64,000 bases of DNA, from assembly GCA_002269645.1 (NCBI GenBank), contig NIVC01001680.1, positions 186,001-250,000 of the forward strand, in the 5' to 3' direction. Each line of letters begins with the position of its first letter. Position 1 is the stretch's first letter. The notes under the pieces were generated by a model. That model had not been told where the DNA came from. It was given only the letters and a program-made list of their open reading frames with translations, and did no database searches. Of the stretch, positions 42,272-63,942 are shown in pieces. Position numbers and translations under genes: made by a program. This DNA is from Macrostomum lignano. Lineage: Eukaryota.

Positions 42272-43493
42272 CTAGCCGGTCTGGATTCTCCCAGCATCCT
42301 CTCCTCCATCATCATCGGTCAATTCTTCCTCGCCGTCGAGCAGCCGCTGCTGCTCCTCAGCTGCAGTTGCCGAGGCCCAGGGCTGCACCTGGGCGGAGCC
42401 GAAAGCCAGGTAGCCGAGGCAGCCGGCCAGCACGATGCCGGCGCTCAGGTAGAACACCTTCAGCCAGTTGGAGCGCACGCTGGCGTGGTTGGTGAAGCCG
42501 CCGACGATCACGGGGGCCACCATGCCCGGCACGGTTGCCAGGGTGTTGCTAAGGCCGTGCAGGGTGCCGGCGTAGCGCGGCGCCAGGTCCAGCTGGTTCG
42601 GCCCGAAGCCGCTGACGATGAAGCCGGACAGGCCGACCGCGGCCGTCAGCACGGCGATGGCCGGGCCGCGGCGGCAGCCCAGGTGGCCGACCAGGGCGAT
42701 GCCGGCCGCGCCGCCGACCGCGCCCAGCGCGATGCTCAGCTTGCGAATGGCCGTCACCCCCAGCCAGCCGCGGCTGCGGGCGGCGTCGGCCAGGAGAGCC
42801 GTCAGGTTGGAGGTCGCCCACAGGACGAGGTAGGGCAGGGCGGAGACCAGGCCGTCCTGCGGGGCGCGGATGCCGACGATGTGGAGGGTCCCTGTGCTGG
42901 GCGTGTGCACTTTTGGCGCCCTTTATTTCACACTGGTTTTTAAGCCCTCGCCTGTTTTAACGCGCTCACACCTGTTTTGGCACACCTTACACCTGTTTTG
43001 GCACCCCTTACACCTGTTTTGGCACCCCTTACACCTGTTTTGGCACCCCTTACACCTGTTTTGGCACCCTCACACCTGTGTTGGCACCCTCACACCTCTT
43101 TTGGCACCCCTTACACCTGTTTTGGCACCCTCACACCTGTTTTGGCACCCTCACACCTGTTTTGGACCCCTCACACCTGTTTTGACACCCCTCACGCCCT
43201 CACGAATTGACAATATGACCTGTCTTTAAGCTTTCCGTGTAAAACTCCTGTTTGCTCCGGTTTTCTGTCACTACCTTTTGATTGCTTTCCGGTAAATGAC
43301 AGACAGACTGCAAACGTTCGGTGCATTCGTGACTCACCTCGGTCAGCGGTATGCTCAGAACATCGGCAAAGAAGGCGGGCAGACAGGTCAGCAGGGTGTA
43401 GAACTGCCAGTTGTAGGCCATGTGCATGCCGATCATGCTCAGCACCGGTCCTGAGGTCAGCATCGCCTTCAGCGGCACCGCGGCAAATCCGCG
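42272..43493 (-). CDS. SLC17 (sialin-like) MFS anion transporter, last two exons only
   Basis: Exons 43338-43493 (VPLKAMLTSGPV..YNWQFYTLLTCLPAFFADVL) and 42272-42856 (NQLDLAPRYAGTLHGLSNTLATVPGMVAPVIVG). Confidence 0.85.
42965..43190. repeat. 21-22-bp intronic minisatellite
   Basis: TTACACCTGTTTTGGCACCCC copies. Confidence 0.9.
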
Positions 43494-43593
43494 CTAGGAA
43501 TGGCAATTGAAATGATTTTTGCATTTAAAGATTGTCTACTTGTAGTAAGAGTTAAGCTCATAAATTTAGGCATAAAATAAAACTTGATTCTAA

Positions 43594-44487
<894 letters not shown>

Positions 44488-44495
44488 AACAAAAA

Positions 44496-44906
44496 ATGAC
44501 ACACGTTACACATGTGCAAAATATAAATGAGTATCAGGTAGGAGATCCAATTGAATACCGAGGTGAGGGACTTTTTGATTTGGTTGGAACAGCAGCAAAT
44601 TTTGTTAAAGACAATATGGGGCTTATAGGACAAGCTGGCTCTGCAGCAGGCTCTATAACAAATGCTGTAAAAGGAGGAATTGAAGCAGCTAGAGCGGCAG
44701 AAGAACTAAAGAAATTGAGAGATTTTAACGATACCCTCTCACAGATAAAAGCAATAAAAGATTTGAAATTAGCACAGGAAGCAACCCAAGCCGCACAACC
44801 AACAGAAACCCCCACGAAAAGCGCACCAATAAGTAATAAAGATATTCAGGATTTTAATAAAATGTTAAATACTATTAAAGGTGGAAAAGGATTAAAGAAA
44901 TTTTAA
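44496..44906 (+). CDS. Small putative virion core/membrane-active protein
   Basis: 136 aa with GEGLFDLV amphipathic segment and GGKG motif; function inferred only. Confidence 0.6.
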   Translation: MTHVTHVQNINEYQVGDPIEYRGEGLFDLVGTAANFVKDNMGLIGQAGSAAGSITNAVKGGIEAARAAEELKKLRDFNDTLSQIKAIKDLKLAQEATQAAQPTETPTKSAPISNKDIQDFNKMLNTIKGGKGLKKF

Positions 44907-44916
44907 CAATATAAAA

Positions 44917-45912
44917 ATGGGCTCAGTTAATGATGATGAAAACCGGTTATATTTTATAGGAGAAATTGTAGATACCTTAAATCTTGATGATAATAAGCAA
45001 ACCCACACAATGTTAAAAAGATTGGATCGATTAGGTAAAAAGTTTGACTACGACATCGATACATTTAAACTCGCAGCAAAATATGCACAAGAAGGAAGGC
45101 CAATATCCTTTAAGAATCGCGGCAGAAATTATAGGTTAACCGACTCCGATGTGAAATTTTTAATGGAGACTCACACTAAAAAGGACGGCGGATTACTACC
45201 CATTCTACCGCTTCTTTTAGGACTTGGCGCAGCTGGAGCAGTCGGTTTAGCCGGAAAAAGAATTCATGATAATGTAAAACAGCTAGGAGAGTTAAGAGCG
45301 AAACAGGGGGGAATCTTGCCCCTTGCAGCTTTGCTCCCAATAATTTTTGCAGGAATTGGAGCAGCTGGAGGAGTTGCTGGCGGAGCAGCTGGAATTGCAA
45401 AAGCAGTAAATGACAAAAAAGCTGCGGACGAAAAAGCTAAAAGAGAGGCCGAATTTCAAAGACAGCAAATAACGCAGGACGCACAATTTAAACAGAAACT
45501 TATTGATACCATTAATAGTAGTTCAGCAACAGCAGAGCAAAAAAGAAATGCAGAAGCTAGGTTATCAGCTGGAAAAGGTTTACTCTTGCAAGGATCAAAT
45601 CATGGCAATGGTTTACTTTTACAAGGAACAACCCAAGGAAGCGGAGTTGTCGCAGATAAATTACATGAATTTGGTCAAACTTTAGAAAAAACGGGTGAGA
45701 AAGCTAAAGGATTTTTTGACAATATTGGGGCTAATTTTAGGCCAGCAGTTCAGAAGATTTTTACTAAATTAGGAAAAGATTTTAACATAATTGAAAAGCA
45801 TGATGGAAGCGGATTATATCTCGAAATGAGACCAAAAGCAGGTTCAGGAATTTTCTTAAATTCAAACGTTATGGGCAATGGATTGCTGTTACCAAAAGCA
45901 GATCTCGAATAG
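44917..45912 (+). CDS. Core protein with adenovirus pX(mu)-like GG-[IL]LP hydrophobic motifs and GxG-L repeats
   Basis: KDGGLLPILPLLLGLG, KQGGILPLAALLPIIFAGIGA; GKGLLL, GNGLLL, GSGLYL, GSGIFL, GNGLLL. Confidence 0.65.
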   Translation: MGSVNDDENRLYFIGEIVDTLNLDDNKQTHTMLKRLDRLGKKFDYDIDTFKLAAKYAQEGRPISFKNRGRNYRLTDSDVKFLMETHTKKDGGLLPILPLLLGLGAAGAVGLAGKRIHDNVKQLGELRAKQGGILPLAALLPIIFAGIGAAGGVAGGAAGIAKAVNDKKAADEKAKREAEFQRQQITQDAQFKQKLIDTINSSSATAEQKRNAEARLSAGKGLLLQGSNHGNGLLLQGTTQGSGVVADKLHEFGQTLEKTGEKAKGFFDNIGANFRPAVQKIFTKLGKDFNIIEKHDGSGLYLEMRPKAGSGIFLNSNVMGNGLLLPKADLE

Positions 45913-45995
45913 GCTCCTGGGGGAGGGTCTGGACACCAAAAACGCAAAATTAAAAAATCAATAATTCAAACATTATATAAATTATATTCTATAAA

Positions 45996-48900
45996 ATGGA
46001 ACAAAGATTGACCCCAGATCAGATTCGACAACTTCTTGCAAATGAGCGCCAACAGTTCAATCGATTACAAAGACAGATTGAACAAATTGAACAGCGCCAA
46101 AGACAACAACGCCGCCAAAGAGCAAGAGAAAGACAGAGAGAAAGGCAGAGAGAAAGAGAAATACAAGACCAACAAATAAATGCATTAGCAAATAATATAA
46201 GGGCAGAATATGAAATGAAGCGATTAATAGAAAAGGCTGAATATGAAAAAAGAATAGCAGAATTAGAAAAAAACCAAAAGAAACCCACACGTCGGAAACC
46301 TCGGAATAAATCGGATGAAAAACCATTAGATGAGTTTATTAGGGTTTATCGATTTGAACCAATGCAGAATGTCCTAGATTTTATTGAAACCCAGCTTTCA
46401 AACGGATATGCTGTTGAAATTACTAATGCGAGGGTACAATATTTTTATAATAAAACCGGAGATGATCGTGAAGAGATTAATCAATACTTAGCAACATTTT
46501 ATAATATAAGCCAATTTCAAGCTTGGTTTAAGCATTTGGTAGAAAATTACGACATGAATTTAAGTGTGTTTTCTGGAAGACTTAAAATGACACCAAACGA
46601 AATTACACTTAAACACGAAAGGTCAAAGCAGGGTATGGGAACAAATGTCATGTGTGAAATTGTAGAGTATAAAGATGAGTACTGTTACATACCTAGTGAT
46701 GGAAATTGTTTCTACAAGTGTGTTCAGTTTATTTATGGTGATAAAGCCCCATCCAAAGACGAATATGGTGCTTGGTTGTTCGACTCAAGAACCCAAAGAG
46801 GTTTAATGACAAATTCAAGAATTGGAAGATTCAACGAATATTTTAATCTTAATATAGGGCTGTACAACACCAAAAATCGTGGCATTGAACCAAAGTTTCA
46901 AAGAGGGATTCACCACGATTGGTTATTAATAAATTATTTCCACACACCCGATTACCACATTGGGCATTATTGTCTTATATCAAATAAACAACGAGGAATC
47001 GCCCTCGAACGGATAAAAGACAATTATAAAGTTGTATATAAAAACCCAACGCTCGAAAATGTTAAGGAGCTAAAAATGTTCAACACACCCACAAACCCCA
47101 ATAAATCAAACGTATATATATTTGATTTTGAAACATATTTAAATTATAATCAACAAGCATGTCCGTATGCGGTTGGTCTTTTAAACTATAACGACTTTTC
47201 TAATAAGTGTAATGAAACCCCAGAGACAATAAAGAAACTAACTAAGATCTTGATATCAGATCGCGGTTGTGATTTTCAAACAGATGGAGATAAGGTTGAT
47301 CGTACCGAAGGTTCGCGGCCTAAGACCGATTGTGTTAGAAAAATGTTTAAATACCTTGGTACAGTTAGGTCAAAAAAGATTGTTTTGATCGCGCATAACT
47401 CATCCCGCTTTGATTCATACATACCACTATTTTGTAATATAAAACCAATTAAAATTCTCAAAACCCCAAGAGGAATATTATCAATAACTTTTGTAAACGA
47501 TTACGCGTCAAAAGAGGTTAGTGCATTTATAAACAAAGATAAGAAGAAGAATCATAAGGATTCGAAACAAACCATTACGATGCTTTGTTCATATCAACAC
47601 GCATCAATGAGTTTAAAAAAGTTTTGCTCATCAATGACAATTAGAGAGGATTTGCGAAAGACCTCAATGGTTCACGACATTACCGAACACGACTATTTAG
47701 AGCGCATGGACGAATGGTATGAATATTTACAATTTGATCTTATTTCTTTATGCGCCTGTATTCATAAGTATAATGAAATAGCATATGAAATTGGAGGAAT
47801 GACAATGTTCGATACTCTTACCTGTTCAAGTTTAACATTAAAATGTTGGTTTAAAGATTTTGTTAGAGTTGAAGACAAAATGAAACAATATCTAAAGACA
47901 GAAGAAAAAACTAATTACATTAAAAAAGTTGAAGAAATAATATCTCCGTTGAAAATAGAGGATTATTTTGACTTAAGCAAACTTGAAAAAGCAAAATACC
48001 AAACACTATTAAGAAAAGAATTTTCAGTTCACTCTCATACCAATCCTTATATACGAAGGTTTATGCGGGACGCAGTCAAAGGAGGCAGGGTATTTGCACT
48101 AATAAATAAATATGAAAGCGACTGTTTTCAAACAATTGTAGACGTTGTAAAAGCCCATTTAAAAACACCAACAAGCGACCCATGCGAGGTTATATCAACT
48201 TATCTCAAAAGCGATATGGAAGAAAAAAAGAAAATCGCAATTAAATTAAAAAACAATTGGGTACCGTATCAGATTGTTTAATGAATTTTGATGGAGTTTC
48301 GTTGTACCCATCTGCCATGTCTGATAAGGATAGTGAATATCCAAGAGCAGAAACAGCAAGAGTTTTTGATATAAGCGAGGAAAAAGATTTCTTGGCACAA
48401 TTTAATTCACAAACCTTTCGACCAAAAACAGCGGTTTTAAAGATTATGTATGAGAATCCTAACACCGTTTTTCTTCAACATCTCCCATCGAAAGATAAAG
48501 AGAAATTTTATAATCCGGAAACAAAAGCAAACGAAACAAAAACATTAAATAGGTTTAGAAACGGAAAAGTAATTGACACCTTATGTTCCGTAGATATACA
48601 AGAAATTGTAAGAATGGGTGGAAAAATATTAAAGATATATAGTGGAATTGTATATGAAAAAAATTACGATTTCTCTCCGTTTCAGAATTATATTACAAAT
48701 CTTTTTGAAATGAGAAAAGTATTTAAAAAAGAAAATAACGAGGCAGGTTCTGAATTGGTAAAAACACTATTAAATTCATTATATGGCAAAACAGTTCAAA
48801 GAGACATTACTTTCACAACACATCTCTGGAATTTGCAAACATTAAAAACCGAATACGATGACACAATCAAATCATATGAGAAAATATGTGACGATTTATA

Positions 48901-49615
48901 TTATGTTGAAAAAAATAAAGACACGCAAGAATATGTAGATGAGGAAGAGGAAAGTCCTATAACAAGCCTTTGTCCAGCACAATTAGGAATATTTATCTTA
49001 GCTCATTCAAGAAGGATCATGAATAATTTTATTACCTCTATAGAGGGCTCAAAGACTCCAGAAATTTATTACGGCGATACAGATTCGTTATATATACATA
49101 AAAAACATTGGGACACATTAAATAAAAACGGGCATGTTGGAAATAACTTAAGTCAAGGAAAAAATGATTATGGAGAGGGTGGAATTATATTCGGTTATTT
49201 TATCGCTCCTAAAATTAAATATTGTCTTTTATTGAAAGACGATTTTATTATGGAAGAGAAAAAAACATTTAAAGGATGTGCAAACGATAAGATTAATTTT
49301 GCATCGTTTAAAACTTTATATGATGGACAGTCAATAAAAGTAAATAATAATGCTCCGTGGAAACGATCATTTGAAGGTGGTATAACAATTCCTCAAAGCG
49401 GATCAACAATATCAAAAACATATACCTCTACGATAAACACATTTAAAAGAGAAAAACCGGATAAAAACGGAGTTATGAAACCATTCTTTAAAAACTATTT
49501 TGATGACAAACCACAGCATGAACATTCAATTGAATATTATAACAGTTTACTATTTGACGTTGACTATAATTGTTTTGAGTTCGATATTGATGAATTAGCA
49601 CTTGAAAAAAACTAA
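45996..49615 (+). CDS. polB: Protein-primed DNA polymerase B (one frameshift at ~48250)
   Basis: FDFET (ExoI), AHNSSRFD (ExoII), YLQFD (ExoIII), KGGR, DGVSLYPSAM, KTLLNSLYGK, YGDTDS. Confidence 0.95.
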
Positions 49616-49861
49616 AGCATGTAATTGTTTAAGCATAATATCCATTTCGATTTCATATAATATTGAAGGCCAATTTTCCTCGCAGTCGTCAGGGTAACTT
49701 AAACAATCCTTTATTTTTTTCCTAAGTTTTTTTATTTTTCTAACCAATCTATCTATTTCAATTTCAATTACTATTTCAGCATAATTAATTGCAGATTTAA
49801 TAAAACGTTTTCTTTTATCCATTTTCATATCGGATGGGAAACATATCGTCCCCATACTCAT
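49595..49861 (-). CDS. Hypothetical protein
   Basis: 88-aa ORF packed against the polB end; no motif recognised. Confidence 0.45.
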   Translation of the reverse strand: MSMGTICFPSDMKMDKRKRFIKSAINYAEIVIEIEIDRLVRKIKKLRKKIKDCLSYPDDCEENWPSILYEIEMDIMLKQLHALVFFKC

Positions 49862-49953
49862 GATATTTCTGAGATATAATTATATTTATTTTTTTATTAA
49901 TATCATTAAGTTCACGCTCTTTAGTGATAAGGATTTTTATTGTCTCCATTTTC

Positions 49954-50301
49954 TTATAAAAAATTTAAACTTATTCGGGGGTCATCCTCCCAAACAGCCG
50001 CCAATTTTACAGTCCTATCACTCTTTTTATTATTTGTTTGTTTTAGTTTAAATTGCAATCCACCCTCGTTGCAGTATTTCATAACAAACGCTTTAGGTTT
50101 ATTAATAACTAAAACAGGAAAATTTTTAACATCATCTCCGCTTAGACATAAAATTTTTTGCCCATCTAATTGTAAAAATATTGATTGAAGCCCAATAAAT
50201 TTAACCTGTCTCAAACATATAATATTATATTCTTTATTCTCCAACATATTGGGTGTGAGATAATTAATCACATTAGAATCGGTTTTGAACCAGCTCTCCA
50301 T
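49954..50301 (-). CDS. Hypothetical protein (probable start MESWFK)
   Basis: Normal composition within the packed viral gene array. Confidence 0.5.
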   Translation of the reverse strand: MESWFKTDSNVINYLTPNMLENKEYNIICLRQVKFIGLQSIFLQLDGQKILCLSGDDVKNFPVLVINKPKAFVMKYCNEGGLQFKLKQTNNKKSDRTVKLAAVWEDDPRISLNFL

Positions 50302-50328
50302 TTTTAATCTAAAAAAATAACAAAAAAA

Positions 50329-50841
50329 ATGAAAGACATTTATGTTTGTAATAAATGTAATGTGACTATGCACAGAGGGCAAACAGCAAACGGAGATATA
50401 TATCATATGTGTTATTCATGTTCTAAAATATATCAATTTGAAAAAACAAAAAAGATTGAAAACTCATATTACTATTTTAAAAACACAATTTTAAGAAATC
50501 TTACAAGAGACATTTCTGATCCAATTTTAATTCCCGGAAATAATGTTTATTTATATAATAACTTTTTCCATTTAAATAAAGGAAAGGGATTAAGTTCGAA
50601 AGACTCCGAAAGGATTTTAATTTTAGTTGGATATTATTTCAATTTTCTTATTCGAGAGAATACAAAGTTTATAAGGATAGGTAACATACCTAACGAAATG
50701 TTACTGAAAAAGTCATTGGAATTTTTATGTATTGATAAAAAATTTAAACCTAGGATCAGAAGAGAGTTACCACTTTGGGAAGAATATATAACATATGCAT
50801 TAAATAAATTAAACAACATTAAGTTCTACCGCACTTCCTGA
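50329..50841 (+). CDS. Zn-ribbon-containing hypothetical protein
   Basis: CNKC..CYSC near the N-terminus. Confidence 0.55.
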   Translation: MKDIYVCNKCNVTMHRGQTANGDIYHMCYSCSKIYQFEKTKKIENSYYYFKNTILRNLTRDISDPILIPGNNVYLYNNFFHLNKGKGLSSKDSERILILVGYYFNFLIRENTKFIRIGNIPNEMLLKKSLEFLCIDKKFKPRIRRELPLWEEYITYALNKLNNIKFYRTS

Positions 50842-51465
50842 CCGTGGGCTTTGTGCCCCAGTAGCAATAGTTTCAGGTTCGTAAATACCTAATGTTTCTA
50901 TAGGTGGAGCTTTGGGTTTGTCCAAACGTAATTCTTTTAATTCCATATCGGTAAAAGTTTCAACATCTAAAATTCTATTTCTATCTTTTAAATATTTTTC
51001 ATATAATTCAACCGCGGTTGATAATTCATGAATCGTTATCTCTCCGTCATCCAATATTTTTTGCACATATAAATATAATTGATTTTTATATTGTTTTGCA
51101 ACATCTCTTAAAGATTTATATTTTTCCTTTCTTTTTTTAAGATATAATTTAATTGCTAAAAGTATTGATAAGTTCCTGATCAATTCAAAACCTGATATTG
51201 AGCCAATTGAAATACCTAAAAATAATTGAGATAAATTAAGAGTTGGAATAGATTGTAAAATACCTAAAACGATTACACATAACATTGATAAGCTTCCAAA
51301 TCCAATATTGAAAAAGTCCATATTTCTTATATGGTTTGAAACTCTTCTTACTTTTTTAGCATATAAATCATAATCATAGTTAATACGATCAACATTACTT
51401 AACATCTGACCTTTACGTTGGTTGAACCGGTCGCGTTCCCATTTATCTGCTTCAGATACCGACAT
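50809..51465 (-). CDS. Two-TM-helix protein of the type common in Polintons
   Basis: Two hydrophobic segments followed by KEKYKSLRDVA..QKILDDGEITIHEL (cf. SKALxDxxISxxEF pattern). Confidence 0.55.
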   Translation of the reverse strand: MSVSEADKWERDRFNQRKGQMLSNVDRINYDYDLYAKKVRRVSNHIRNMDFFNIGFGSLSMLCVIVLGILQSIPTLNLSQLFLGISIGSISGFELIRNLSILLAIKLYLKKRKEKYKSLRDVAKQYKNQLYLYVQKILDDGEITIHELSTAVELYEKYLKDRNRILDVETFTDMELKELRLDKPKAPPIETLGIYEPETIATGAQSPRSGSAVELNVV

Positions 51466-51794
51466 TCTCGTCTATTTTTAATAGCACCAAAATGAATTCC
51501 CCGCGCTCTTTGGGGATTTGTCCCGAGCTCAATAGGTATTGTATTGGAGTGATTCTTTCTTTTTTCTCCCATTTAAATCCTATTTTCCAAAACTCTTGAA
51601 GTATAATATGATTTTTTAATAACTTAATTAATTCTTGAAGCTTCTTATTATCCTGAACATTTACAGTACTAAATAAAAATTTGGTATGAGATTTGAATGT
51701 TTTTATATTTGATTCTTGTTTAGGAATAGGAATAATAACATTATTTTGCCGCATCGATGGAGTTCTACTAAAAGCCATTTTATATAGAAATATT

Positions 51795-53838
51795 TTATAT
51801 TTGAGTAGGAGGTTTTTCCAAATAAGCAGTAGAGGGAAAAACATAACCAAACGACGTACTACCACATACAACTGCACCACGAATAAAATGTGCAGCATCC
51901 GCTCCACCAGTTCGAGCACCAAAACCCATAAGGGTTCCAGATTTATCTAAAGTTCCCCAAGTTCCACTATCATATGTGAAAACGTTCTGTCCAATGAGGG
52001 TAAAAGAATCACCAGCAACATTGTATGACTGTAATCGGTACCAAACCCTTTGATTTAAAATATTAACTTCAAATAAATGCCAATTGCCGTTATCAATATT
52101 AGCATAGGCTACAGTTTGATCTGCGCCAGTATTAACATCCGCGCGGCTTGATCCGTCTGATTTTTTATTACTCCAAACAACTCCAAACCTATCAGTCCAC
52201 TCACTAGCAAACACTATCAATCCGGCGTCGGTTGATAATCCAGTTCCAAATTCCGATGTTGGACGTTGGTGACAGTATGCATAAAACCAAACCGCATCTG
52301 CACCATCTCCTGTAGCATTAGCAACTCGGAAAAAGAAAGACGCAGATATATTTTGAAAATGTGTGAAATTGAATTGTAAAGCACCACTTACTCCAGAGTT
52401 TCACGAGTAATTCTAGCGCCGTTTTGATAATCGATATAAGAAGCATCGCTAATTAAAGAACCGACTGGATATATATCTCCGGCGGTTGTTGGATTTTGAT
52501 ATCCAGACCAATTGCAAATTACTGGTTCGAACAAGGCCGCATCAATAGCAGGTATTCCATCCAATTTATTTTTATCGCTTCCAGACATTCTACCATTTGA
52601 TGTTGGAGTAGCTAGCTGATCTACGTACGCTCGCGGAACTGCAGAAAGTATTTGAGTTGGCCAATTAAGATCTTGAATTTCAACACGGTGTTCAAATAAT
52701 TGTATTTGACGAACCTCGATAGGTTGTGTACCGGTACCACCAGTTGGGAAGAATACGCTATAATATTTCCAAAAATTAGTCGTTAAATTAGATAGAGCAA
52801 ATGATGTTGCTTGAACTGGTGATCCCGACGTAGTTAATGTTGTCCATGAATCGGTAGCAACATTTTTTGCGCGAACCGACCACCCCGAGGGTATCTCAAT
52901 TGTTTCACTGCCTGTAATTCTTAATTCAAATATTCTTCTATTATAACCTAAAAATTCAAATTGAATTTCCATATTGGTTGTGGTTCCGGTATTTGGTGAC
53001 CATTGTGTCGCAAGGCTTCCATCTCCAACTCGAAAAGCTGTGTTGCCATTTTCAGATGCTGTAAGAACAACATCAGGATTTGAAGTATTTGATGTAAGCG
53101 GCGTGGTAAAAATATCGGCGTCGGTTGCATTAGCTCGCTCGTTTACTTGGCCTAGAGTTATCGAGTCTGCGTTCTCTGTTCCAAATAATAAATTTGTTAA
53201 TTTAAAATTATTCATATTAATATTTCCACTACGAGTGGCAACTTGATTATCGACATAGTTCTTATCAACCACTGAATCACTAGTTGTAATTGAAACATTT
53301 ATAATTCGGTTGTTGCTCATATCTAGGTTTCCGGTTGCGGTGGTTTGAACATAACGTGAATCAGAATCAGTTCGAGAATAAGAATCAGTTACATCTCTTT
53401 TTAAATTTAATCCATTATCAACTTCGGTTTTGGTATAAGAATCGGCTACGTTCCGTTTCAAATTTAATGAATTATCAACTTCGGTTTTGGTATAAGAATC
53501 GGCTGTATTGCGTTTTAAATTTAATGAATTATCAACTTCGGTTTTGGTATAGGAATCGGCTGTATTGCGTTTTAAATTTAATGAATTATCAACTTCGGTT
53601 TTGGTATAGGAATCGGCTACGTTCCGTTTCAGATTTAGTGAATCATCTATTTGAGTTTTGTATAGGAATCTGCAACATTTCTTTTTAAATTTAGTTTAGT
53701 ATCAACTTCACTTTTTTTATAACCTTCATCTTCATTAATATATCGATTATCTCCAAATGTAACACTTATTCCACCAGATGTGCCACCACCACCACTACTT
53801 GTTGTTCCGTTCCATGAGGGTGTTCCAGAAAATAACAT
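51795..53838 (-). CDS. Fibre/tail-fibre-like adhesin (two frameshifts, ~680 aa restored)
   Basis: 19-aa repeats DSYTKTEVDNSLNLKRNVA; GNLDMSNNRIINV..KNYVD stalk motifs; discoidin-like block; ATPTSNGRMSGSDKNKLDGI; C-terminal ConA/LamG-like block (DNGNWHLFEV). Confidence 0.7.
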
Positions 53839-53848
53839 TTTTTACTGT

Positions 53849-54310
53849 CTATTTTATAGAGTCTAAAATCGTGCCATCGGCACGCATGCTTTGCATGATA
53901 CTAAATCTTCGGGTTTCCTTCGAGTTATTAATTTTATATAAAAAATACAACGCCGCTTGCCCGCAATAACTTTTATCAAATGTTTGAAATTGTTCGTGAT
54001 GATCTCCACATAAACGATTTTTAGTATGATTAAATTTGTCTTTTATTTCCTGTAACGGAGGAAGCGCGTATGAATCAAAAAAATAAACAAGTTTTGGTTT
54101 TGAATAAACTGCTGACCAATGAACACCGTTTTCTTTTGTTGTTTCAATATTAACAATGAAAGATCCATATTGTGGTAAGTCTTTGATCTCATCTCGCATA
54201 ACACATCTGAATGGTTTTATTTTTAACTGCCTCGCCCAATTTGTTAATTCGATATTGCTTGTTGTGTCCGTTCCATATCTTTGTTTAAAATCATCCCACG
54301 TCATGGTCAT
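53849..54310 (-). CDS. Adenain-like (C5) cysteine maturation protease
   Basis: NGVHWSAV (His), FFDSY (Asp), QTFDKSYCG (Gln/Cys). Confidence 0.92.
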   Translation of the reverse strand: MTMTWDDFKQRYGTDTTSNIELTNWARQLKIKPFRCVMRDEIKDLPQYGSFIVNIETTKENGVHWSAVYSKPKLVYFFDSYALPPLQEIKDKFNHTKNRLCGDHHEQFQTFDKSYCGQAALYFLYKINNSKETRRFSIMQSMRADGTILDSIK

Positions 54311-54531
54311 TTTATGTTCCTGAAAAACTCTTGGTTTTAGTTAGTTTCGTAGGTGTGGGTTTTAACAATTCCTTTCTTATTTTATCAGCTTGTAACTGCC
54401 TTAATTTTGCTAGTTCTAGTTCGTAATTATCTTCAGCTTTTTTAACTTTTTCTGATTGTTTTTTTATTAAATTATTATTATTATCGTGCTTTGCACGCGA
54501 ACATGTTGTTCGATTACCCATTTTTACAGTA

Positions 54532-55317
54532 CTAAACCTGTTTTATACGTAAAATTATTGTTATTGACTGCCCACCAAAACTTATTAATCTATCGCTTTC
54601 ATCTACAATCCTAATATAAATTGATTGAACATTATATTGATTTAATGGGTAATATATTGGGGTTTGGGGTGCAACAATCATTTTCTCTCCAATTGGAACA
54701 GCAAGAAATGGGATTGAATAAATAATTCCACGTTGAACCAAAACTCCGTTATCGTCTGTTATATAACCACCGTTTGAAATGTCGGTTGTTATATTAATTG
54801 TATTTACTCCACCCTCTATATTTCCAACTGTATCACCGGTGCTTGATGTGGTAACTATTCGGGAATTAAATCCAAGTATGGTTCTGAGTGAATTTGCAAT
54901 TGTGAAATCAACCTGATATCCGGATCCTAGTGATAGTGTGAATCTGCCAGACGGTAAATCAACACCTATAACAATTGCTCCTGCTACCCAATCACCATTA
55001 GTTGTTAATTCTCCTTCTATATAAGCATTCAAATCAGTATAGCTATACGCTCCTGGGTTAACGCTAAATGTTGTCCAATTGGCTCCGGAATCTTTAGAAT
55101 ATCTAAATTGATTATTTGTTGCATTAATTAATTGAGGCATGTTGAAAACCGAAAATAGTATTAAACCTATTTGATAACTTAGGCTTTGATCAAGTTGTAA
55201 TGGATCGCGCAATTGAATCCGTTGCTCGCTGGTTGTCATTATAAACTGTAATGTTGTACTAAATTTTGAATTAGTTCGATCTACCAATTGTTTTATAGTA
55301 TTTAAATTTGTAGTCAT
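54532..55317 (-). CDS. Minor capsid protein (penton, single jelly roll)
   Basis: INATNNQFRY, PGAYSYTDLN, LRTILGF, PIYYPL..IRIVDESDRLISFGG..IILRI are typical of Polinton pentons. Confidence 0.85.
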   Translation of the reverse strand: MTTNLNTIKQLVDRTNSKFSTTLQFIMTTSEQRIQLRDPLQLDQSLSYQIGLILFSVFNMPQLINATNNQFRYSKDSGANWTTFSVNPGAYSYTDLNAYIEGELTTNGDWVAGAIVIGVDLPSGRFTLSLGSGYQVDFTIANSLRTILGFNSRIVTTSSTGDTVGNIEGGVNTINITTDISNGGYITDDNGVLVQRGIIYSIPFLAVPIGEKMIVAPQTPIYYPLNQYNVQSIYIRIVDESDRLISFGGQSITIILRIKQV

Positions 55318-55414
55318 TTTTATAGTGGGAAATTAATGGACGAAGTCCGCGTTCCGAAGGAACGATCGAACGAAGTTCGCGACCCTATGGGCGATCGTAC
55401 CGAAGGTACGCGTG

Positions 55415-56213
55415 CTATGCACGATCCTCTTCTTCCTCATTATCTTCTTTTATCAAATTTGTTAAAATTCTATGTTTCCTTTCTAACCTCGGATTGATAT
55501 AAATATGTTTGTATTGGCTATCATCCCAAATTTTTTTACACATACTTTTAAATGGTTTTGCATCCAATCCGGGATTAAATCTAGCGTGTATATTTTGTAA
55601 ATCATAGTTATCTAAATCAAACATTACACAACAACTTGCATTCTTTTTTATAATCGATTCTAATTCTCTAAAGGATTGAGTAAGATAAAAAGCTCCAATT
55701 CCATCTCCTCTACCACTAACAAAAATTTCCTTTTGCAATTCTTGATCACCGTCATTAATACAATCATCAAAAATAATTAGTGTTTTATCATGTTTTGGAA
55801 TTTGATCATAGGCTAATCGGGTTGATACTCTAACAGTTGGGGCTCGATCGGACGAAGTCCGCGACCCTTCGGGGCGATCGGTGATGTTTTCTGGCTGTTG
55901 TGCCATTGTTTTACATAAATCCTCAATGTCTGCTAGATTAAATCGCGGTTCGTCATCATCCTCATATTGCTCATATGCTCTTAACATTCTAAACAAGACA
56001 TCTTTTTTTAATTTGTTTTTTAATCCATGTTTAAGAAATTCATAATATTTTATTCTAGGTTTTAGTATAAATTATTAAATTATTATAGTCTAGCATTCCA
56101 TCGGTTGTTAACAGGTCATAAACAAAGTGTGTTTTTCCTTTACCTGATCCTCCGATTACTAAACAAAGAAAAGGATCATTTGGAAATATTTTATTGTGTT
56201 TTGCCTTTACCAT
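55415..56213 (-). CDS. A32/FtsK-like packaging ATPase (frameshift at ~56065)
   Basis: MVKAKHNKIFPNDPFLCLVIGGSGKGKT (Walker A), LIIFDDC (Walker B), GRGDGIGAFYLTQS. Confidence 0.9.
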
Positions 56214-57731
56214 TTTTAAAGAAATAATTTAAATAGGCGCGACGGTCGGAGACCTGCGACACTAAAGTGGCGTCCCGAACAATCGTGCCATCAGCTTTAG
56301 CAATTGACATATATTCCTCTAGAAACAATACGTGGGCGTCAAGTGCCTGATTACCGGTTTTATTAATCTCTAACATATAATTAAGTCCAATATTGGCTAC
56401 GTTTTCTTTCTGTGCCGTTAGATCATAAACAACCACTGGATGAATGTTTAGAAACTCTGTGGGTGTGTACTGAGGGACGGCATACGCTTCATTTTTAGGC
56501 ATAATCTTGATAATATTTTATAAAATCATTAACATTATTATTTGCTATATTTAAATTTAGGGGGTCTTTAACCGGATAATATTGATCATCAACCTGCAGG
56601 CGGATATTCTGAACATTAAACTCGTTAATAGCTGCAGCCGCATTGTCTGTTGCGGTGGCTGCTTGTTCTGCTATGGCACCGGATTGAAGCCAATATAAAT
56701 CCCCATTTGCTCTTTTACTCCTTCTATTTGTTATCTTAAACCAAACAAAAATATATCTCACCCGACGTTTTGATGTCAGTATTTGCCACTGGAATGAATC
56801 CTGGTTATTATTAATGGTTCGCATAAAATGTCGACGATTCAAATAAAATATTTCCTGATCATGCGTTAACTGATTATCGATGTGTTTTAAAAGTGGGGCT
56901 GTTACCTCAATAGTTGGTACGACTAATTGAATTGAATCTATACGAACTGCTATATCGGTTGAAATTGAGGTTCCATAAAGTATCCTAGGCTGATATCCAC
57001 CAGATATTTGCAACTGTATCCCAAATTTTAATCCTTTCCATACCCGATTTGGTGAGAAAAACCCAAATAGTGGAAAGATTGAAAAGTCCTGCTCATATGC
57101 TGTTGCTGTGGTTAAAACCGCGACTGGGAATTTATTCTGACGATCTATAAAACCAGTATTAATATCTTTTGTATTAGTCATAGTGGTTACAACTGGAACT
57201 ATGTTTGTATTAAGGTAAACAATTAGCGCTGCAGTATCTGCACCGGCTGCGTTTTGTACATTAGGGAAAACTACTGCTTGACCGTTACCTTTATCCGGCA
57301 TCCACCCAACATTATCACCAACTTGTTTTGATAAATAAGTATAATTTAAATGTTTCAAAACTCCATTAATCTCTGCGGGGTTTGATGATGTCTCAACCTC
57401 AGCACCATTAACAGTTAGTTGAGCTTGGGAAAAACATTTATAAAACCAATCATTTTCTATTATTATTCCGGATCGATCTGCGATATCTCCGGCTGCAAGA
57501 GCAGTTCCATCATTTCTAGTATACAACCATCTAACGCGGAAAAACATTTTTCATATCCAATATAGTGTTGGTTGCGCCGATGTCAAAAGTTACCGTTCCA
57601 GTAGTAAAGTTATTTGAATTATCACTTGTTGGTAGGGTATAATTTAAATCTCTTGCTCTGACCTCATTAATATACTGTCGGTGCTTTTTGAAATGAAATT
57701 TATCACTCCACATAGTTTTTGTTTCAGCCAT
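56191..57731 (-). CDS. Double-jelly-roll major capsid protein (two frameshifts)
   Basis: Three consecutive ORFs (57531-57731, 56495-57547, 56191-56502) total ~510 aa; FSQAQLTVNGAEVE, RVRYIFVWF, LQVDDQYYP, HPVVVYDLTAQKE. Confidence 0.85.
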
Positions 57732-57765
57732 TTTTTTAAGTTAAAAAAGTTTTTTATGTTAAAAA

Positions 57766-58434
57766 ATGAGTCAATTTATGGACGTTGATGGAGAGTTAGC
57801 GATTTATAAAGAGAAGCAAAGATATTCTGATTTTGTTAGAAATTTACAAAAAAGAAAGTTAGGAATACAATTAGCTGGCGAAAGATTTGCTGCTCCTTTT
57901 GTTAATCCTATTACTGGGAAAATTAGTGAACTAGAAAAAACAGATAAAGATCTTCTGGAAAAAATTGCTAAAAATACGAGCCAAAAGAGGATGAAATTTT
58001 GGATGAGCCGCCTGCTTATGAGACTGATCAAGCAATATTTAGAGTTGCAGAAATTAGACGTGAAGAGATTAGGGGTGGAGTTGAACAATATCCGAGATGC
58101 ACCAACTAGTATTGCTGTGACAGATTTAGGTGGTGGTAATTATCGAATTGGTAACGTAGTTAAAGATCGAAATGAACTATATAGAGAATTGGGCGGAGCA
58201 TTTAATATTATTACGAACCCTAGGGTAAAATTTAACCCCGATTTATATACTAGGGATGAATTAATAAGTGCTAGAATTTTTTATGATGAGTTAGGAGGAG
58301 CTGTTAAAAATACCAGCTTGTATAAATGGATTGTTAATTCTATAAATAACAAACCAGCTGTTGGTGATGGATTTAAAACACCGCGAAAACTTGTTTTAGC
58401 TGCTGCGAAAGCTGCTGGACATACTGGAGTTTAA
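57766..58434 (+). CDS. Hypothetical Polinton protein (possibly PZ-like)
   Basis: 222 aa with DLYTRDEL and VGDGF motifs; assignment weak. Confidence 0.45.
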   Translation: MSQFMDVDGELAIYKEKQRYSDFVRNLQKRKLGIQLAGERFAAPFVNPITGKISELEKTDKDLLEKIAKNTSQKRMKFWMSRLLMRLIKQYLELQKLDVKRLGVELNNIRDAPTSIAVTDLGGGNYRIGNVVKDRNELYRELGGAFNIITNPRVKFNPDLYTRDELISARIFYDELGGAVKNTSLYKWIVNSINNKPAVGDGFKTPRKLVLAAAKAAGHTGV

Positions 58435-58461
58435 TTAATTGTTAAATTTATTTTTTATAAA

Positions 58462-59029
58462 ATGGATGAAACAAAAATTTGTACTACGTGTAAAATTGAG
58501 AAACCGATGACTAAAGAATTTTTTTGTTGGAGAAATGACACAAAAAAATTTAAAAATCTTTGTCGATCTTGTGAGAAAGTTAAATGCACTATGTGGAGAA
58601 TAAACAATAAAGATAAATGTAATAAATATGCAAAAAATAAATATCGCACTGATGAAAATTTCAAAAATATTAGTCTAATTAGAGCTAAAATAACTTGGGC
58701 ATTGAGAACTTTTCATGACAAACATTATATCTCATATCTTGGTTGCACAAAAGAATTCTTTTTGATTGGTTAAATTTCACAAGAAATTATTATGTTCCAA
58801 AAAATTATACTGGAAAGTTAGATATTGATCATTTCATTCCCGCTTCTTCATTTATTACAAAGACGATGATCAGATTAAAAAGTCTGAAAATTGGAGAAAT
58901 AAAAGATACTTAACTAGCGTAGATAATAACTATAAAAAAGTTAAACAACCAACAATTGAAGAATTTGCGAAACAATTGGTGCTATCATGTATTTTTAAGG
59001 CTATTAAAAATGAACCAAATAGTGTTTGA
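58462..59029 (+). CDS. Free-standing HNH-type endonuclease (frameshifted)
   Basis: N-terminal CTTC..CRSC, YLGCTKEFF(L)DW, DIDHFIPASSF, ENWRN..LTSVDNNYKK, as in NCLDV/phage HNH proteins. Confidence 0.75.
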
Positions 59030-59720
59030 AGGAGGATTTTTAGACTTACAAAAAGGATTAACAAGCTTACCACCAATCTTTACTACTGGGAGGTATACGG
59101 GTGAGCTACACCTACCATCAATGAACTTCACAGGTTAACCCGTGGCCTGAGTGAGGAAGCAATGTCCTTGCTAGTCACTATTTGTGGCGACATCTCCAAA
59201 TTGCGTGAAACCGTCATACAGCTTCAAGTACCACTTCAAGTGAGAAATCTTTTGAAGGAACAGAGGTAACTCCTCTTCCCAAAGAATAAAAAAGCTTGAA
59301 GACACGGTGGCAATGCGCAGCCAAGCTCCTAAGTATTTTAAATATAAGGAGAAGGTTCAGAGAGCAGACGGAGATGGGCGGTAATTATCGCCGCTTAAGG
59401 TGTGCTCCAGCCTCATTCGAAAGATTGAGGTAAACAGCCGGGGACTAGACTGGATTTAAGATTAAATCCTGACAATACTCCAAAATCTGATTCAATTCAA
59501 TAAATGGGATTGATTGGTTAGCATACTATCACGACTTAGCATATAGAGATGCTGACAAGAACCCGCCGAGGAAGCATTAAGATTAAAACATGAAGCCGAT
59601 CAAAAAATGATTCAAGGATTAGATAACTTGCAGGGATTATCGGTAGGTCAAAATTAACTAGGTGGATGGTTAAAAAGATCTTGCAGTCTAAAGTTAAATT
59701 TGGTTTGGGAATTAATTATA
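59010..59720 (+). CDS. Parvovirus-VP1u-like phospholipase A2 split by a group I intron
   Basis: Exon 1 59010-59135 ends ELHLPSMNFTG; exon 2 from 59438 reads PGTRLDLRL..(P)INGIDWLAYYHDLAY..KHEADQKM..KFGLG once single-base frameshifts are corrected. Confidence 0.85.
59136..59437 (+). ncRNA. Group I intron ribozyme, subgroup IC1 (302 nt, no ORF)
   Basis: 5' exon ends in U and pairs with IGS GCCTG (59145-49); intron ends in G. P3 CATCTCC 59191-97/GGAGATG 59370-76; P AAATTGCGTGAAA; Q AATGCGCAGCCAAG 59312-25; P7 GAGCA 59362-66/TGCTC 59403-07; P5abc, P6, P8 and P9 all pair. Confidence 0.92.
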
Positions 59721-59745
59721 ATCAACATGGAAATAATTGTGTTGA

Positions 59746-60083
59746 GTGTTTACTATTAAGTGGCGTGGGTTAAGTTCTGATGAGGCAAAGATTCTTCATA
59801 AAGAATATCGAAAACCTAAATTTTATAGAAAAATCATGAACTTCAAAAAGAATGAAATTTGGTATGCTGATTTAATGTCGATGCCGAAAGATCTGGGATA
59901 TAAATATATCTTAACCATATTAGATGGTTTTACTCGATACGCGTGGGCTGTTCCTTTAAATCCAAAAAAGGAGAGGATGTTGCTGCTGCTTTTAGAAGTC
60001 TTGGAGAAAAAGCGAAAGTTTGTGTGTTGACGAAGGAAAAGAATTTTACAATCCTACATGTATAAATTGTATCATTTTGAAAA
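59746..60083 (+). CDS. Retroviral-like (rve) integrase, truncated by the assembly gap
   Basis: ILHKEYRK..EIWYADLMSM..GYKYILTILDGFTRYAWAVPL..VDEGKEFYN. Confidence 0.9.
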
Positions 60084-60835
60084 NNNNNNNNNNNNNNNNN
60101 NNNNNNNNNNNNNNNNNNNNNNNNNNNNNNNNNNNNNNNNNNNNNNNNNNNNNNNNNNNNNNNNNNNNNNNNNNNNNNNNNNNNNNNNNNNNNNNNNNNN
60201 NNNNNNNNNNNNNNNNNNNNNNNNNNNNNNNNNNNNNNNNNNNNNNNNNNNNNNNNNNNNNNNNNNNNNNNNNNNNNNNNNNNNNNNNNNNNNNNNNNNN
60301 NNNNNNNNNNNNNNNNNNNNNNNNNNNNNNNNNNNNNNNNNNNNNNNNNNNNNNNNNNNNNNNNNNNNNNNNNNNNNNNNNNNNNNNNNNNNNNNNNNNN
60401 NNNNNNNNNNNNNNNNNNNNNNNNNNNNNNNNNNNNNNNNNNNNNNNNNNNNNNNNNNNNNNNNNNNNNNNNNNNNNNNNNNNNNNNNNNNNNNNNNNNN
60501 NNNNNNNNNNNNNNNNNNNNNNNNNNNNNNNNNNNNNNNNNNNNNNNNNNNNNNNNNNNNNNNNNNNNNNNNNNNNNNNNNNNNNNNNNNNNNNNNNNNN
60601 NNNNNNNNNNNNNNNNNNNNNNNNNNNNNNNNNNNNNNNNNNNNNNNNNNNNNNNNNNNNNNNNNNNNNNNNNNNNNNNNNNNNNNNNNNNNNNNNNNNN
60701 NNNNNNNNNNNNNNNNNNNNNNNNNNNNNNNNNNNNNNNNNNNNNNNNNNNNNNNNNNNNNNNNNNNNNNNNNNNNNNNNNNNNNNNNNNNNNNNNNNNN
60801 NNNNNNNNNNNNNNNNNNNNNNNNNNNNNNNNNNN
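60084..60835. other. Assembly gap (752 N)
   Basis: Run of N. Confidence 1.
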
Positions 60836-61172
60836 TAATAATTCATTTTTTAAATATTTTTTTCACATAAAAATTTCACTTTCATTCTCTGAATCACTGG
60901 TTTCATATGAACTATTTGTTGATTCGGAATCTGTTGATCTAACCTCCCAATCATCCGAATTTAAATAATCTCCAAGTTGAAATATTAACTCACCCTCTTG
61001 TTCTAATCATACATCTCATCTAGCTCTAATGGATAAAGTTTTAGGTCGTGCTTGTCGTCATATTTTAAATAAACTTCATCAATTATTCCATTCAAAATAT
61101 GTTGTTTTATTATCTCTGCATTTTTAGCAACAGTCTCAAAAGTATCACTAACAGAAAAGGTGTAAACTCGGT

Positions 61173-61495
61173 TCATTTTTTATAACAGAAAAAGACCCTT
61201 CGCGCCTGCGGCGCGTGCGACGGGTTCTAGAAAGTTTGTGTGTGTTGGAGAGAGTTGGAAGCGTTGACGATACAAAATACCCAGCAAACCATTCTCACCA
61301 TTGCAAACAATTTAACCCTTTATCAGTGTGAAATGGCCTGTTTGACCGAAATGAAGCGAGGATGAGCGAAGCGAGTTGAGCGAAGTGAAGACGAGCGAAA
61401 ATGAAGGGAAACAGGCCATTTCACACTGATAAAGGGTTAAATTGTTTGCAATGGTGAGAATGGTTTGCTGGGTATTTTGTATGGTATATACTACT
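61173..61495 (-). repeat. Right TIR containing a perfect 74-bp hairpin stem
   Basis: 61270-61343 is the exact reverse complement of 61409-61482; 65-nt purine-rich loop. Confidence 0.95.
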
Positions 61496-61581: not shown

Positions 61582-63942
61582 AGCCCATCTCTCCAGCGCA
61601 ACCTACCGCAATGCCACCCGCTGGTGGTGGCGGCGGCTCATCAGACGGAAGCGGAATTGGAACTAGCGGTGGATATCCTGCTGAATGTGAGTAATGTATA
61701 TTAAATGCTTACATAATAATATTAGGATTTTTTGTTGAAAAAGTGAATTTGGTTGGATTCTTTACACCAGATCCACTAAATTTGCAACTTTTCTAACGTT
61801 TGATCTTTTGATCTCTATAGCTGCAGATATAAAAAAGTATCATTGAACAATTTAAACTAAAGTTAGGATAAGTTACACGTAATAATTTAAATATTCAAGT
61901 TTATAACAAATTTACTAAACCGTTGAAAACGTTTCCGTGACAATAATTGCTAAAGAGTCAATTAAAATCACTCACTTAGTGACTCTAGCGACTGTGGGGC
62001 GACTACAACTTTTAAAAAACTCAAATCAAACGACTGTGATGCGATCGAGAGGCGACTGATTAGTTATGAGTGCATCACGCAAGTCACGCAGATGCGCTTC
62101 AGACGCAACTCAGTGATTCTACAGCGACTCTGACACGCCCCAGATACGACTCTACGACCCCAGAGTCATTGTAAAAGCGCCCCAGCGTCGCAGACAAAAA
62201 ACGTCTCAAATTGACTCTTAAACGACTTTTTTTGATGACTTTTTGGCGCAAGTGACCCTGGGACGCTTCTTGGCCTGGGTACCGTTTTCACCGGTTAAGC
62301 TTAGTGTGTCAATTGTGGTGGCAGCGGTGGAATTTCTAATATATAAATTGTATCCAAATGCAATCCAGACACAAAAGCGCCAGAAGCACGTCGAGTCGAT
62401 AGTAGCACGGTGGTCAATATCAGCTGGTGGACTCCAAATTCACAATTAATTAAATATTATCGAGTGCAGTACTGCGACACAGCCGCTTTGGTGAAACAGA
62501 CCGCTGGCACTAACGATATCGACTGTCCAGGCGAAATTCGCACCCTAGACGACATGGTACCCGCTACCGCTGGGACTGCGGTTTCCGCGCACGATTCCCG
62601 TCGCAGGTTACACGTTGTTTGGGCCGGCGCCCGACCAGGTAGGGTCTATCAATTTCGTTTAGCCTTTCATCTGGCCGCCATCACTAGTGACCGGTCGGAG
62701 TTCGGGCTCACCGATTGGAGTCGGCCGCCTGTTAGTTTTGCCGATATTGTCGGTCCACCGCCTAAGGTGAGTATCGGTTGCATGACTAATGAACAAGTGA
62801 CAGATAGGAATGAACTTAATGGGAATTGAAAAAGCTAGTTAAGGTGATTGAAACAGTTTATTTAGTCTTAGGATTTTTAGAGACAGACTGTTATGACGCA
62901 GCATCTTGTGGGCTACATGAGGTATACAAGATAACGTTACGGCTCGTACATCTTCATGAAGTCAACTTTATAAACTCCTTGTATTTTTTATCTACTCTTG
63001 ACTTACATGATCAATATGCTTATTTAGTGTAGTAGAGTTAACTTGGTAGATCGTTCAGACTGTCTATAATCTGGCTGTCAAGCATTTTACGATTCAAAAG
63101 CTCCCCTACCACTGCTGTAGAGGAAAAGTACCAGCTAAGTTGTTACATTAGAAAATAAGCTACTACTGCTATTACTTATCTAATGATTTTTAAACATTCA
63201 GATAACCGACGTGCCAAGATTTAGCTCCGACGAGCCGCTTAAGTGGGCCTATGATGCTTCTTCTGACGCGGTCGCAGTCGGTTTCGTAATCTGGGCCAGG
63301 CGTCAGCTGGAGAATGGAACTAATCAGTACACAAAGTACCGAGTGGGTAACGGCTCGGCTAGGCAATACTATTTCTACGATTTGCAGCCGGGATACCAGT
63401 ACACCCTGCGCATGTTTGCCGAATTAGAGTTTAGTGACGGCCGCGCTTCCGGATCTAATGAGGATCGTCTGTTAAGGTCGCCAGACAGCGCCGCGGTCAG
63501 CCTGAAACTTCCTATCGGACTCGATAAATTTCCGAATGGGGACAAAAGAAATAAAAATGATTCCGAATCAAATGCTGGGCCGAAACACAACATGGTGCTT
63601 ATACTGTTGGTTAGCGGCTTAATAGCCCTGCTGGTTCTTCTAGGCTTAGGCCTGCTTGGATTTTGCCTGTTACGGAAATGGCGGACCAAACATCGACGAT
63701 CGGCTTTGCCTAGTAAGTTTAACGATTGCGTATTGTATTAATATTTAATTTAGATGACGAGGCATTTGGCTTTTCATTGCATAAAGTTGTATGGTTAGTT
63801 TACGTTGAGCTAATATTTTATTTAGTAGTGATAATTAAGTGTCAATTTATAGACTTTTTACGTTTAACTTTAATACTTCATTCGTATTAAAATAATTCCA
63901 AAATTCTCGCAGACGACTCGTGGAGTAATAACATTACCTATG
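61582..63942 (+). CDS. Type I membrane receptor with FN3 domains (internal exons only)
   Basis: Exons 61582-61686, 62369-62766 (VNISW..YYRVQY..YQFRL), 63202-63712 (YDLQPGYQYTLRMFA; TM LILLVSGLIALLVLLGLGLLGFCLL then RKWR), 63913-63942. Confidence 0.75.

Follow-up and report, generated by a model that had tools for sequence, protein, structure and literature searches.

A group I intron interrupts the PLA2-integrase gene of a Polinton in the genome of Macrostomum lignano. We consider it reasonably probable that the working partner of this intron is an Eco47II-family PD-(D/E)XK nuclease (PD), that the intron provides both immunity and homing, and that the HNH nuclease encoded next to it is a rival tenant of the same gene slot. 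Positions refer to the window, i.e. the whole analyzed stretch of 64,000 nt. The preliminary description of this DNA had suggested that the HNH gene and the intron may form a selfish module that spreads between Polinton copies. A selfish nuclease-plus-intron system at the insertion site is well supported, but a specific HNH-intron module fails once slot contents are compared across copies; the suggested mechanism was about right in kind and probably wrong in partner. Where the data connect a nuclease with the insertion site, it is the Eco47II-like enzyme and not HNH. The relevant features of the window are as follows (a slash within a site or codon pair marks the point of intron insertion).

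44136..61495 (.): Polinton copy of family A, 17.4 kb, with terminal inverted repeats (TIRs) and matches to pPolB and rve
45996..49615 (+): pPolB, by profile match; split over two frames in the window copy
58462..59029 (+): nuclease slot, here a Cys4-zinc-finger HNH gene; ATG at 58462, stop at 59027-59029
59010..59135 (+): exon 1 of the PLA2-rve fusion; ATG at 59010, ends in the Gly codon GGT of the Gly/Pro pair
59100..59135 (+): variable last 12 codons of exon 1; candidate HNH target region, a weak lead
59133..59439 (+): split GGN/CC site; GGT at 59133-59135, CC at 59438-59439, intron between
59136..59437 (+): group I intron of type T1 without an ORF, 302 nt; ends in G in the window copy
59438..60083 (+): exon 2, remaining PLA2 domain and rve integrase; several frame breaks in the window copy, enters the assembly gap

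The window Polinton and its interrupted integrase gene

The element is bounded by terminal inverted repeats at 44136 and 61495 and contains an assembly gap (60084-60835). Besides these repeats, it has the pPolB, rve integrase and A32-like ATPase that define Polintons/Mavericks, the ATPase with a match of only E = 0.014; a Pox_A32 search of the genome gave no match. A 6-bp target-site duplication was not found, the flanks of the gapped window copy agreeing at 4 of 6 positions. The double jelly-roll capsid candidate is the ORF at 56495-57550, assigned by position only and with no fitting Pfam match. Tandem 57-nt repeats (53305-53690) encode the N-terminal part of a 435-aa minus-strand ORF that is fibre-like in appearance. 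Next to the left end of the element, on the minus strand, lie host exons (42272-43524) of what we take to be an SLC17-like transporter, and fibronectin-III-like exons are seen at 62347-63741. The same genome contains at least three more families of pPolB-bearing elements (L333-L346); one type among them (L341-L344) apparently has no capsid genes in the stretches seen.

The host of the element is an animal, as evidenced by Wnt genes in the genome, two of which are located on contigs (C506 and C952) that also bear intron-containing copies. The whole stretch is covered by contigs of four runs from four studies. We rejected a contaminant origin given the Wnt-bearing contigs and runs of seven studies, and an rDNA or organellar intron given the protein-coding viral context.

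In natural intron-less copies the intron-bearing gene is a 424-aa fusion of PLA2 and rve integrase. The fusion is also present in six environmental proteins; no relative emerged when IMG/VR was scanned with the PLA2 region. Since PLA2 and rve form a single ORF, the integrase would be expressed only after ribozyme splicing, or else from an internal start.

The window intron matches Rfam RF00028 (66.6 bits, E = 1e-14) and has the P3-P7 catalytic core. Exon 1 ends in ...NFTG and exon 2 begins with PGT; the frame is open across this junction in natural intron-less copies. P1 (59131-59149) is formed by CAGGUU/GGCCUG and places a U.G pair at the 5' splice site, while P7 pairs 59362-59366 with 59403-59407. 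In a 12-row alignment of the core (36 pairs) 91% of cells are paired and 6 pairs are changed on both sides; none of 500 shuffles scored as high, a figure that is not a probability because the rows are related. The covariation is seen in P3, P4, P7 and P9, and the intron folds better than 99 of 100 shuffles. No ORF of at least 90 aa was found within it, which agrees with the earlier statement that the intron encodes no endonuclease.

Family A carries two intron types at one 5' site, T1 (97 copies) and T2 (23 copies, one with a large insertion). T2 (e.g. L067:1552-1885) shares P2, P2.1 and P5abc with T1 and has a different core, which by its motifs we take to be IE-like. T2 is possibly a chimeric ribozyme. 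None of the G-ending 3' splice sites tested in T2 restores Pro-Gly in frame, and Rfam recognizes neither T2 nor one 333-nt T1 copy. The terminal base, G in nearly all group I introns, is G in the window copy and A in 68 of the 97 T1 introns, which could mean impaired splicing of the latter; group I introns ending in A are known from Coxiella and coral mitochondria. Exon 2 is open after 57/68 A-ending and 25/29 G-ending T1 introns. The A-ending copies (e.g. L008:2199-2501) keep the P9.0 pairing intact, and the G-ending form of the window has an imperfect one. Contigs from four runs of four studies (three of them only guessed to be RNA and possibly DNA) fill all 30 bins of an A-ending copy without a joint and have no bearing on splicing.

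Inserts of about 30 nt that fold into double hairpins occur in frame in pPolB (47282-47340) and the ATPase (55824-55886). Inserts with common words are also present inside the 333-nt intron form (L006) and the family-B intron described below; they are possibly a small palindromic mobile element.

Two nucleases in one slot

To compare slot contents we compiled 126 distinct family-A loci from earlier search returns and 60 fetched stretches, two of which were duplicates. This is a sample and not a census: the best 40 of 207, the best 40 of 54 and the best 150 of 761 candidates were scored, and about ten listed places were left out. Thirty loci were chosen for likeness to the HNH copy of the window, and the copies are not independent, grouping into 68 clusters at 98%. 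Of the 126 loci, 85 have HNH in the slot, 36 have PD, 3 have HNH fragments and 2 are truncated; in no case are both nucleases present. The HNH and PD genes begin alike, in both the upstream context and the first codons, and most open copies also stop at the same position. The ORF is not open in 24/85 HNH and 12/36 PD copies. In two loci (L086 and L184) only an HNH fragment is present, and upstream of it lies a different ORF, acidic and about 155 aa long.

All 36 PD copies carry the intron, which is weak support for their association, as 82 of the 85 HNH copies carry it too. The three intron-less copies, representing two clusters, all hold HNH, with the ORF open in two (L043 and L083), and the exon-1 protein haplotype of L043 is common with intron-bearing HNH copies. 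Nuclease type and intron type are independent (T1:T2 is 66:16 for HNH and 29:7 for PD; Fisher P = 1.0, and P = 0.27 for the 68 clusters), i.e. the two reassort freely over 106 nt. A fixed pairing of HNH and intron, as expected from the preliminary description, is thus not supported: in 36 of 126 loci the intron stands beside the other nuclease, every intron-less copy has HNH and the types are independent. The gene arrangement itself had been described correctly, with the HNH gene overlapping the start of the intron-bearing gene and ending about 110 nt from the insertion site; we measured an overlap of 20 nt with the ATG at 59010 and a distance of 106 nt. A degenerate junction pattern gave 16 matches against 14 for the control, one of them real.

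The HNH frame of the window copy is broken twice, near 58760 and near 58850. These breaks, as well as those in the host gene, may represent decay or long-read error; open forms are found in other copies. The HNH ORF is naturally open in 61 of the 85 sampled HNH copies, and 60 of these 61 keep the DH..N..N motif. Matches to known families are weak for PHROG (endonuclease VII/HNH) and nearly missing for Pfam, while a profile search collected 40,595 clusters at E<=0.001. Among 74 aligned relatives D123, H124 and N147 are invariant and N156 nearly so. The AlphaFold model (pLDDT 95) places these residues in a beta-beta-alpha motif (strands 120-124 and 148-152, helix 153-159) with a His base and Asn ligands. 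The best viral fold matches are Mimivirus L246 (E = 5e-10) and the 'intron encoded endonuclease' of Bodo saltans virus (E = 4e-9). A PDB fold search returned nothing at E<=0.001, the top rows being HNH domains; by sequence, PDB yielded nothing for PD, and for HNH nothing beyond a zinc-finger match to Hpy99I (E = 0.003).

A 17-nt motif of the intron core matches at least 122 IMG/VR stretches, 15 of which contain HNH homologs. In four distinct loci (L193, L254, L238 with its duplicate L305, and L214) of the eight inspected, the homologous ORF lies between capsid exons and runs into the intron core; in L235 and L255 the homologs also lie between pieces of capsid genes. Because its giant-virus homologs lie in capsid-gene introns, HNH can be assigned to a family of intron-borne, homing-type nucleases. 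The major capsid genes of these six loci contain up to three such group I introns, several with HNH in the core region.

The HNH alleles form eight groups that are 49-100% identical, and dN is below dS in all four allele pairs tested. In three of four pairs (drawn from the L003, L020, L067, L078 and L083 ORFs) divergence is greater in the N-terminal half than in the catalytic half, which would fit an exchange of DNA-binding modules. Within exon 1, the window copy and 80 of the 85 HNH copies have Pro-Ser in place of the Pro-Gly (CCWGG) form.

The Eco47II-like nuclease and GGNCC avoidance

A genome-wide Rfam search gave 28 scored matches, and all 15 that were fetched belong to a second Polinton family, B. 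Here the intron occupies the same site before PGT, is about 880 nt long and contains a PD gene, and there is no HNH. The gene is positioned in the P2.1 loop, between inverted arms, and reads on into the core. Both nucleases are absent from 20 intron-less family-B copies. Family B (L348-L351) has another layout, in which PLA2-integrase follows the TIR as first gene and there is an ORF that we assume to be primase-helicase-like. Between the two families the introns are 84-88% identical, compared with 58-63% for the flanking exons and 69% for the integrase part. Structural constraint explains part of this likeness and transfer probably the rest.

Assignment of PD to the Eco47II family comes from Pfam RE_Eco47II, which matches the intronic ORF of family B with E = 6.6e-7 (29.5 bits, over the cut-off of 25.9) and the free-standing ORF of family A with E = 4e-4 (20.6 bits, below the cut-off). 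The D..ExK motif is kept in all 24 open PD ORFs, so that both the profile and the residues of a PD-(D/E)XK nuclease are present. Although an Eco47II homolog has been linked with GGNCC in the part of PMC10305163 that we used, membership of the family does not fix the specificity of PD.

Six of eight environmental PD homologs also read on into an intron core. More distant homologs (about 30% identity), located on giant-virus and metagenome contigs, adjoin a partner ORF, which is a C5 methylase in the one case tested; of 19 such loci, 16 were scanned for a group I intron and none was detected. Scanning metagenomes and viruses with the PD alignment yielded distant relatives only. Pairs of an Eco47II-like nuclease and a C5 methylase, mostly convergent, recur in giant-virus contigs (L314, L323-L332). 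When the PD tree is rooted on the distant homologs, the free-standing form nests among the intronic ones with moderate support only, which weakly favours the direction from intron-encoded to free-standing. The Polinton PD gene differs from a type II restriction-modification system in that the ORF maps show no cognate methylase beside it; genome-wide, PF00145 gives 12 matches, exon-like pieces on contigs outside the listed Polinton places.

The pentanucleotide GGNCC is almost completely missing from the elements concerned. Observed/expected counts are 0/15.5 in the window Polinton, 0/6.8 in a partial PD copy and 0/17.2 in family B with intron. In two intron-less copies they are 1/11.6 (family B) and 1/5.7 (family A, partial), and the sole site is the junction, where GGN/CC, encoding Gly/Pro, is intact in intron-less copies and divided by the intron in the others. 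Four control Polinton copies of other families in the same genome have 18/25, 22/28, 26/31 and 46/40, though these controls are more GC-rich and the element edges in fetched stretches were placed by eye. By this model host DNA, too, shows a mild deficit (85/138.5).

The avoidance is also apparent with no prior choice of motif: among the 512 strand-collapsed 5-mers, GGACC and GGCCC occupy the first two ranks of avoidance, and among gapped dyads GGNCC comes first in families A and B taken separately. Gly-Pro occurs 0 times in the long ORFs against 6.7 and 7.5 expected in families A and B. None of 200 synonymous shuffles was as low in GGNCC as these two families; one control family was slightly low (18 against a mean of 26, 4/200 shuffles as low). 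Among intron-less family-B junctions 17 of 20 have an intact GGNCC and 3 have GGCCA (Pro to Gln), an apparent escape that may represent one lineage. Extra GGNCC sites were found in two intron-less copies, one in L113 and three in L133. The giant-virus restriction-modification loci are uninformative, with 2-4 sites expected in most and 18 against 11 in L314. The avoidance of a five-base site in the Polintons argues against a long (>14 bp) recognition site for PD.

Proposed mechanism, alternatives and known systems

In the mechanism that we propose, the PD nuclease would descend from giant-virus restriction-modification enzymes, would be carried without the methylase and would most likely cut GGNCC. 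The Polintons would have purged GGNCC except where the Gly-Pro codons of PLA2 force one, and the group I intron would split this last site in DNA, yet leave the RNA. During replication the enzyme would cut any GGNCC-containing DNA. Its own genome would escape because the dispensable sites are gone and the ribozyme interrupts the final one, which the PLA2 loop keeps in place. Since GGNCC is purged except at the junction, an intron-less Polinton would be cut once, at the insertion site. After the cut, a co-replicating intron-less relative would disappear or, by homing, be repaired with an intron-bearing copy as template. Homing would proceed in cis in family B, where the gene is in the intron, and collaboratively in family A, where it is free-standing 106 nt upstream. 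A short-site restriction enzyme would have become a homing enzyme because the genome purged its site. The HNH enzyme would represent a second nuclease, of the homing type, which enters and leaves the slot by exchange, possibly with a target of its own in exon 1, and HNH copies would keep the intron mainly as immunity against the GGNCC cutter of their relatives, though lacking the cutter themselves.

As a five-base cutter would shred host DNA if expressed when integrated, the PD gene must be silent there; such silence is our simplest guess as to why host chromosomes are spared. Given the intact GGNCC in 17 of the 20 intron-less family-B copies, any homing is far from complete. The numbers of intron-less copies (0/36 for PD, 3/85 for HNH) fit the model and are too small to count. 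The complete scheme may be worded as methylase-free restriction, in which self is the genome-wide absence of a five-base site, the intron masks the unavoidable one, the same enzyme, inside or beside the intron, drives homing between families, and HNH is a slot rival with a second target in the exon. We would put this scheme as a whole slightly short of an even chance.

It could be that HNH is the enzyme that cleaves the intron-less junction and that it spreads together with the intron by collaborative homing, either alone or as a second enzyme converging on the site. This would suit the slot it shares with the site-tied nuclease, the intron in 82/85 HNH copies, the kept catalytic motif (60/61 open ORFs) with dN < dS in 4/4 allele pairs, and the HNH relatives inside related group I introns of giant-virus capsid genes (L193, L254, L238, L214). 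However, the possibility is made quite improbable by the slot data, in which 3/3 intron-less copies hold HNH, open in L043 and L083, L043 shares its exon-1 haplotype with intron-bearing HNH copies, and nuclease and intron types reassort freely over 106 nt; moreover, family B has the intron without any HNH. A different role for HNH is compatible with our preferred explanation, as it concerns this enzyme only: HNH might home without the intron, cutting the ancestral Pro-Gly (CCWGG) exon 1 about 20 nt upstream of the intron, with carriers protected by recoding of the exon rather than by the intron. CCWGG is kept in 5/85 HNH versus 11/36 PD copies (P = 6e-4; 4/49 versus 7/19 clusters, P = 0.008), amino-acid diversity is 0.27 in the last six codons of exon 1 versus 0-0.18 in other non-overlapped windows, and CCWGG counts are 3/12.7 in the window versus 17/15.1 in the HNH-free family B. 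We nevertheless regard such homing as unlikely, although worth keeping in mind: the CCWGG pattern was found post hoc, shared descent with linkage over 106 nt can be enough to yield the association, the motif persists in two open HNH copies (L083 and L165), and it is present in family A and also low in host DNA (61/92.8).

The data on GGNCC allow two further interpretations. The cutter might be mainly a viral weapon, used during a productive cycle against host DNA or co-infecting elements, with the intron as immunity and homing as a by-product or absent. The five-base site is indeed frequent in host DNA and in other Polinton families, a genome-wide purge implies strong and repeated exposure, and intron endonucleases have been proposed as competition tools for Bodo saltans virus (PMC5871332, in the part used here). 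We find this improbable, because introns far more alike than exons between families A and B point to transfer at the site, and because the PD gene resides inside the intron in family B and environmental relatives. Alternatively, GGNCC could have been purged under the restriction system of a helper giant virus or by mutation bias, leaving the nucleases and the intron as neutral passengers. Eco47II-like restriction-modification pairs do occur in giant-virus contigs and many copies are broken (24/85 HNH and 12/36 PD ORFs are not open), but the purge is complete in the two gene-carrying families and absent in control families of the same genome, the PD gene is located beside or within the intron that interrupts the sole GGNCC still present, and ORFs and catalytic motifs are kept. 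We consider this explanation highly improbable.

The arrangement that we favour, with PD as the partner of the intron, resembles collaborative homing in phages, where, in the text of PMC3984707 consulted, a free-standing nuclease lies beside an ORF-less intron in a conserved motif and a related element has the nuclease inside the intron. Unlike in phages, the element is eukaryotic, virus-like and part of the genome of an animal, its slot is taken by either of two unrelated nucleases, and the site-linked enzyme is a protein of a short-site restriction family. The PD tree weakly favours a change from intron-encoded to free-standing, the reverse of the phage proposal. With intron-encoded, free-standing and intron-less states in one genome, the proposed link between free-standing and intron-encoded homing becomes testable. 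Collaborative homing has also been raised for replicases (bioRxiv 10.64898/2026.10.13.758929, in the portion available to us).

Restriction folds in intron-encoded enzymes have precedents. The site of I-Ssp6803I is about 23 bp. According to the sections of PMC3943268 considered here, this enzyme has a PD-(D/E)XK fold and I-Bth0305I an EDxHD fold, the latter with a site of nearly 60 bp. Unlike these long-site enzymes, uniqueness in the Polintons seems to result from purging a five-base site from a 17-kb genome. If true, a restriction enzyme turned into a homing endonuclease with no gain in specificity, the small viral genome losing the site instead. Type II systems of the Eco47II family (PF09553; giant-virus pairs L314-L332) share the nuclease family at about 30% identity and the predicted GGNCC site; unlike them, the Polinton gene has no adjoining methylase, and self-protection would consist of site avoidance plus the intron. 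If true, the intron has a direct protective job in place of the methylase, and these Polintons recombine and compete as co-replicating viruses.

Protist Polinton-like viruses have ORF-less introns of about 300-370 nt, as well as free-standing HNH and GIY-YIG genes (PMC12220804); in the text of that paper covered here, the introns are in another gene, in protists only, and neither a nuclease nor a target is linked to them. In giant viruses (Bodo saltans virus, PMC5871332, as far as used here; Mimivirus L246) the introns have HNH of the same family and a similar core motif, but there HNH sits inside the intron, whereas the Polinton HNH is free-standing and exchangeable. The literature searched, with subscription journals mostly outside it and supplements excluded (including Tables S11-S12 of PMC12220804), held no report of group I introns in animal Polintons or of the GGNCC arrangement. 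The PLA2 domain has a counterpart in adintovirus PLA2X, a parvovirus VP1-like PLA2 domain in an animal Polinton (PMC8502044, in the part consulted); unlike PLA2X, the domain described here forms a fusion with the rve integrase, and a ribozyme interrupts it. Metazoan group I introns are mainly mitochondrial, with putative cases in rDNA spacers, in the account of PMC8393795 available to us; with the copies analyzed here, clearly more than 100 group I introns are placed in genes for proteins in the genome of an animal.
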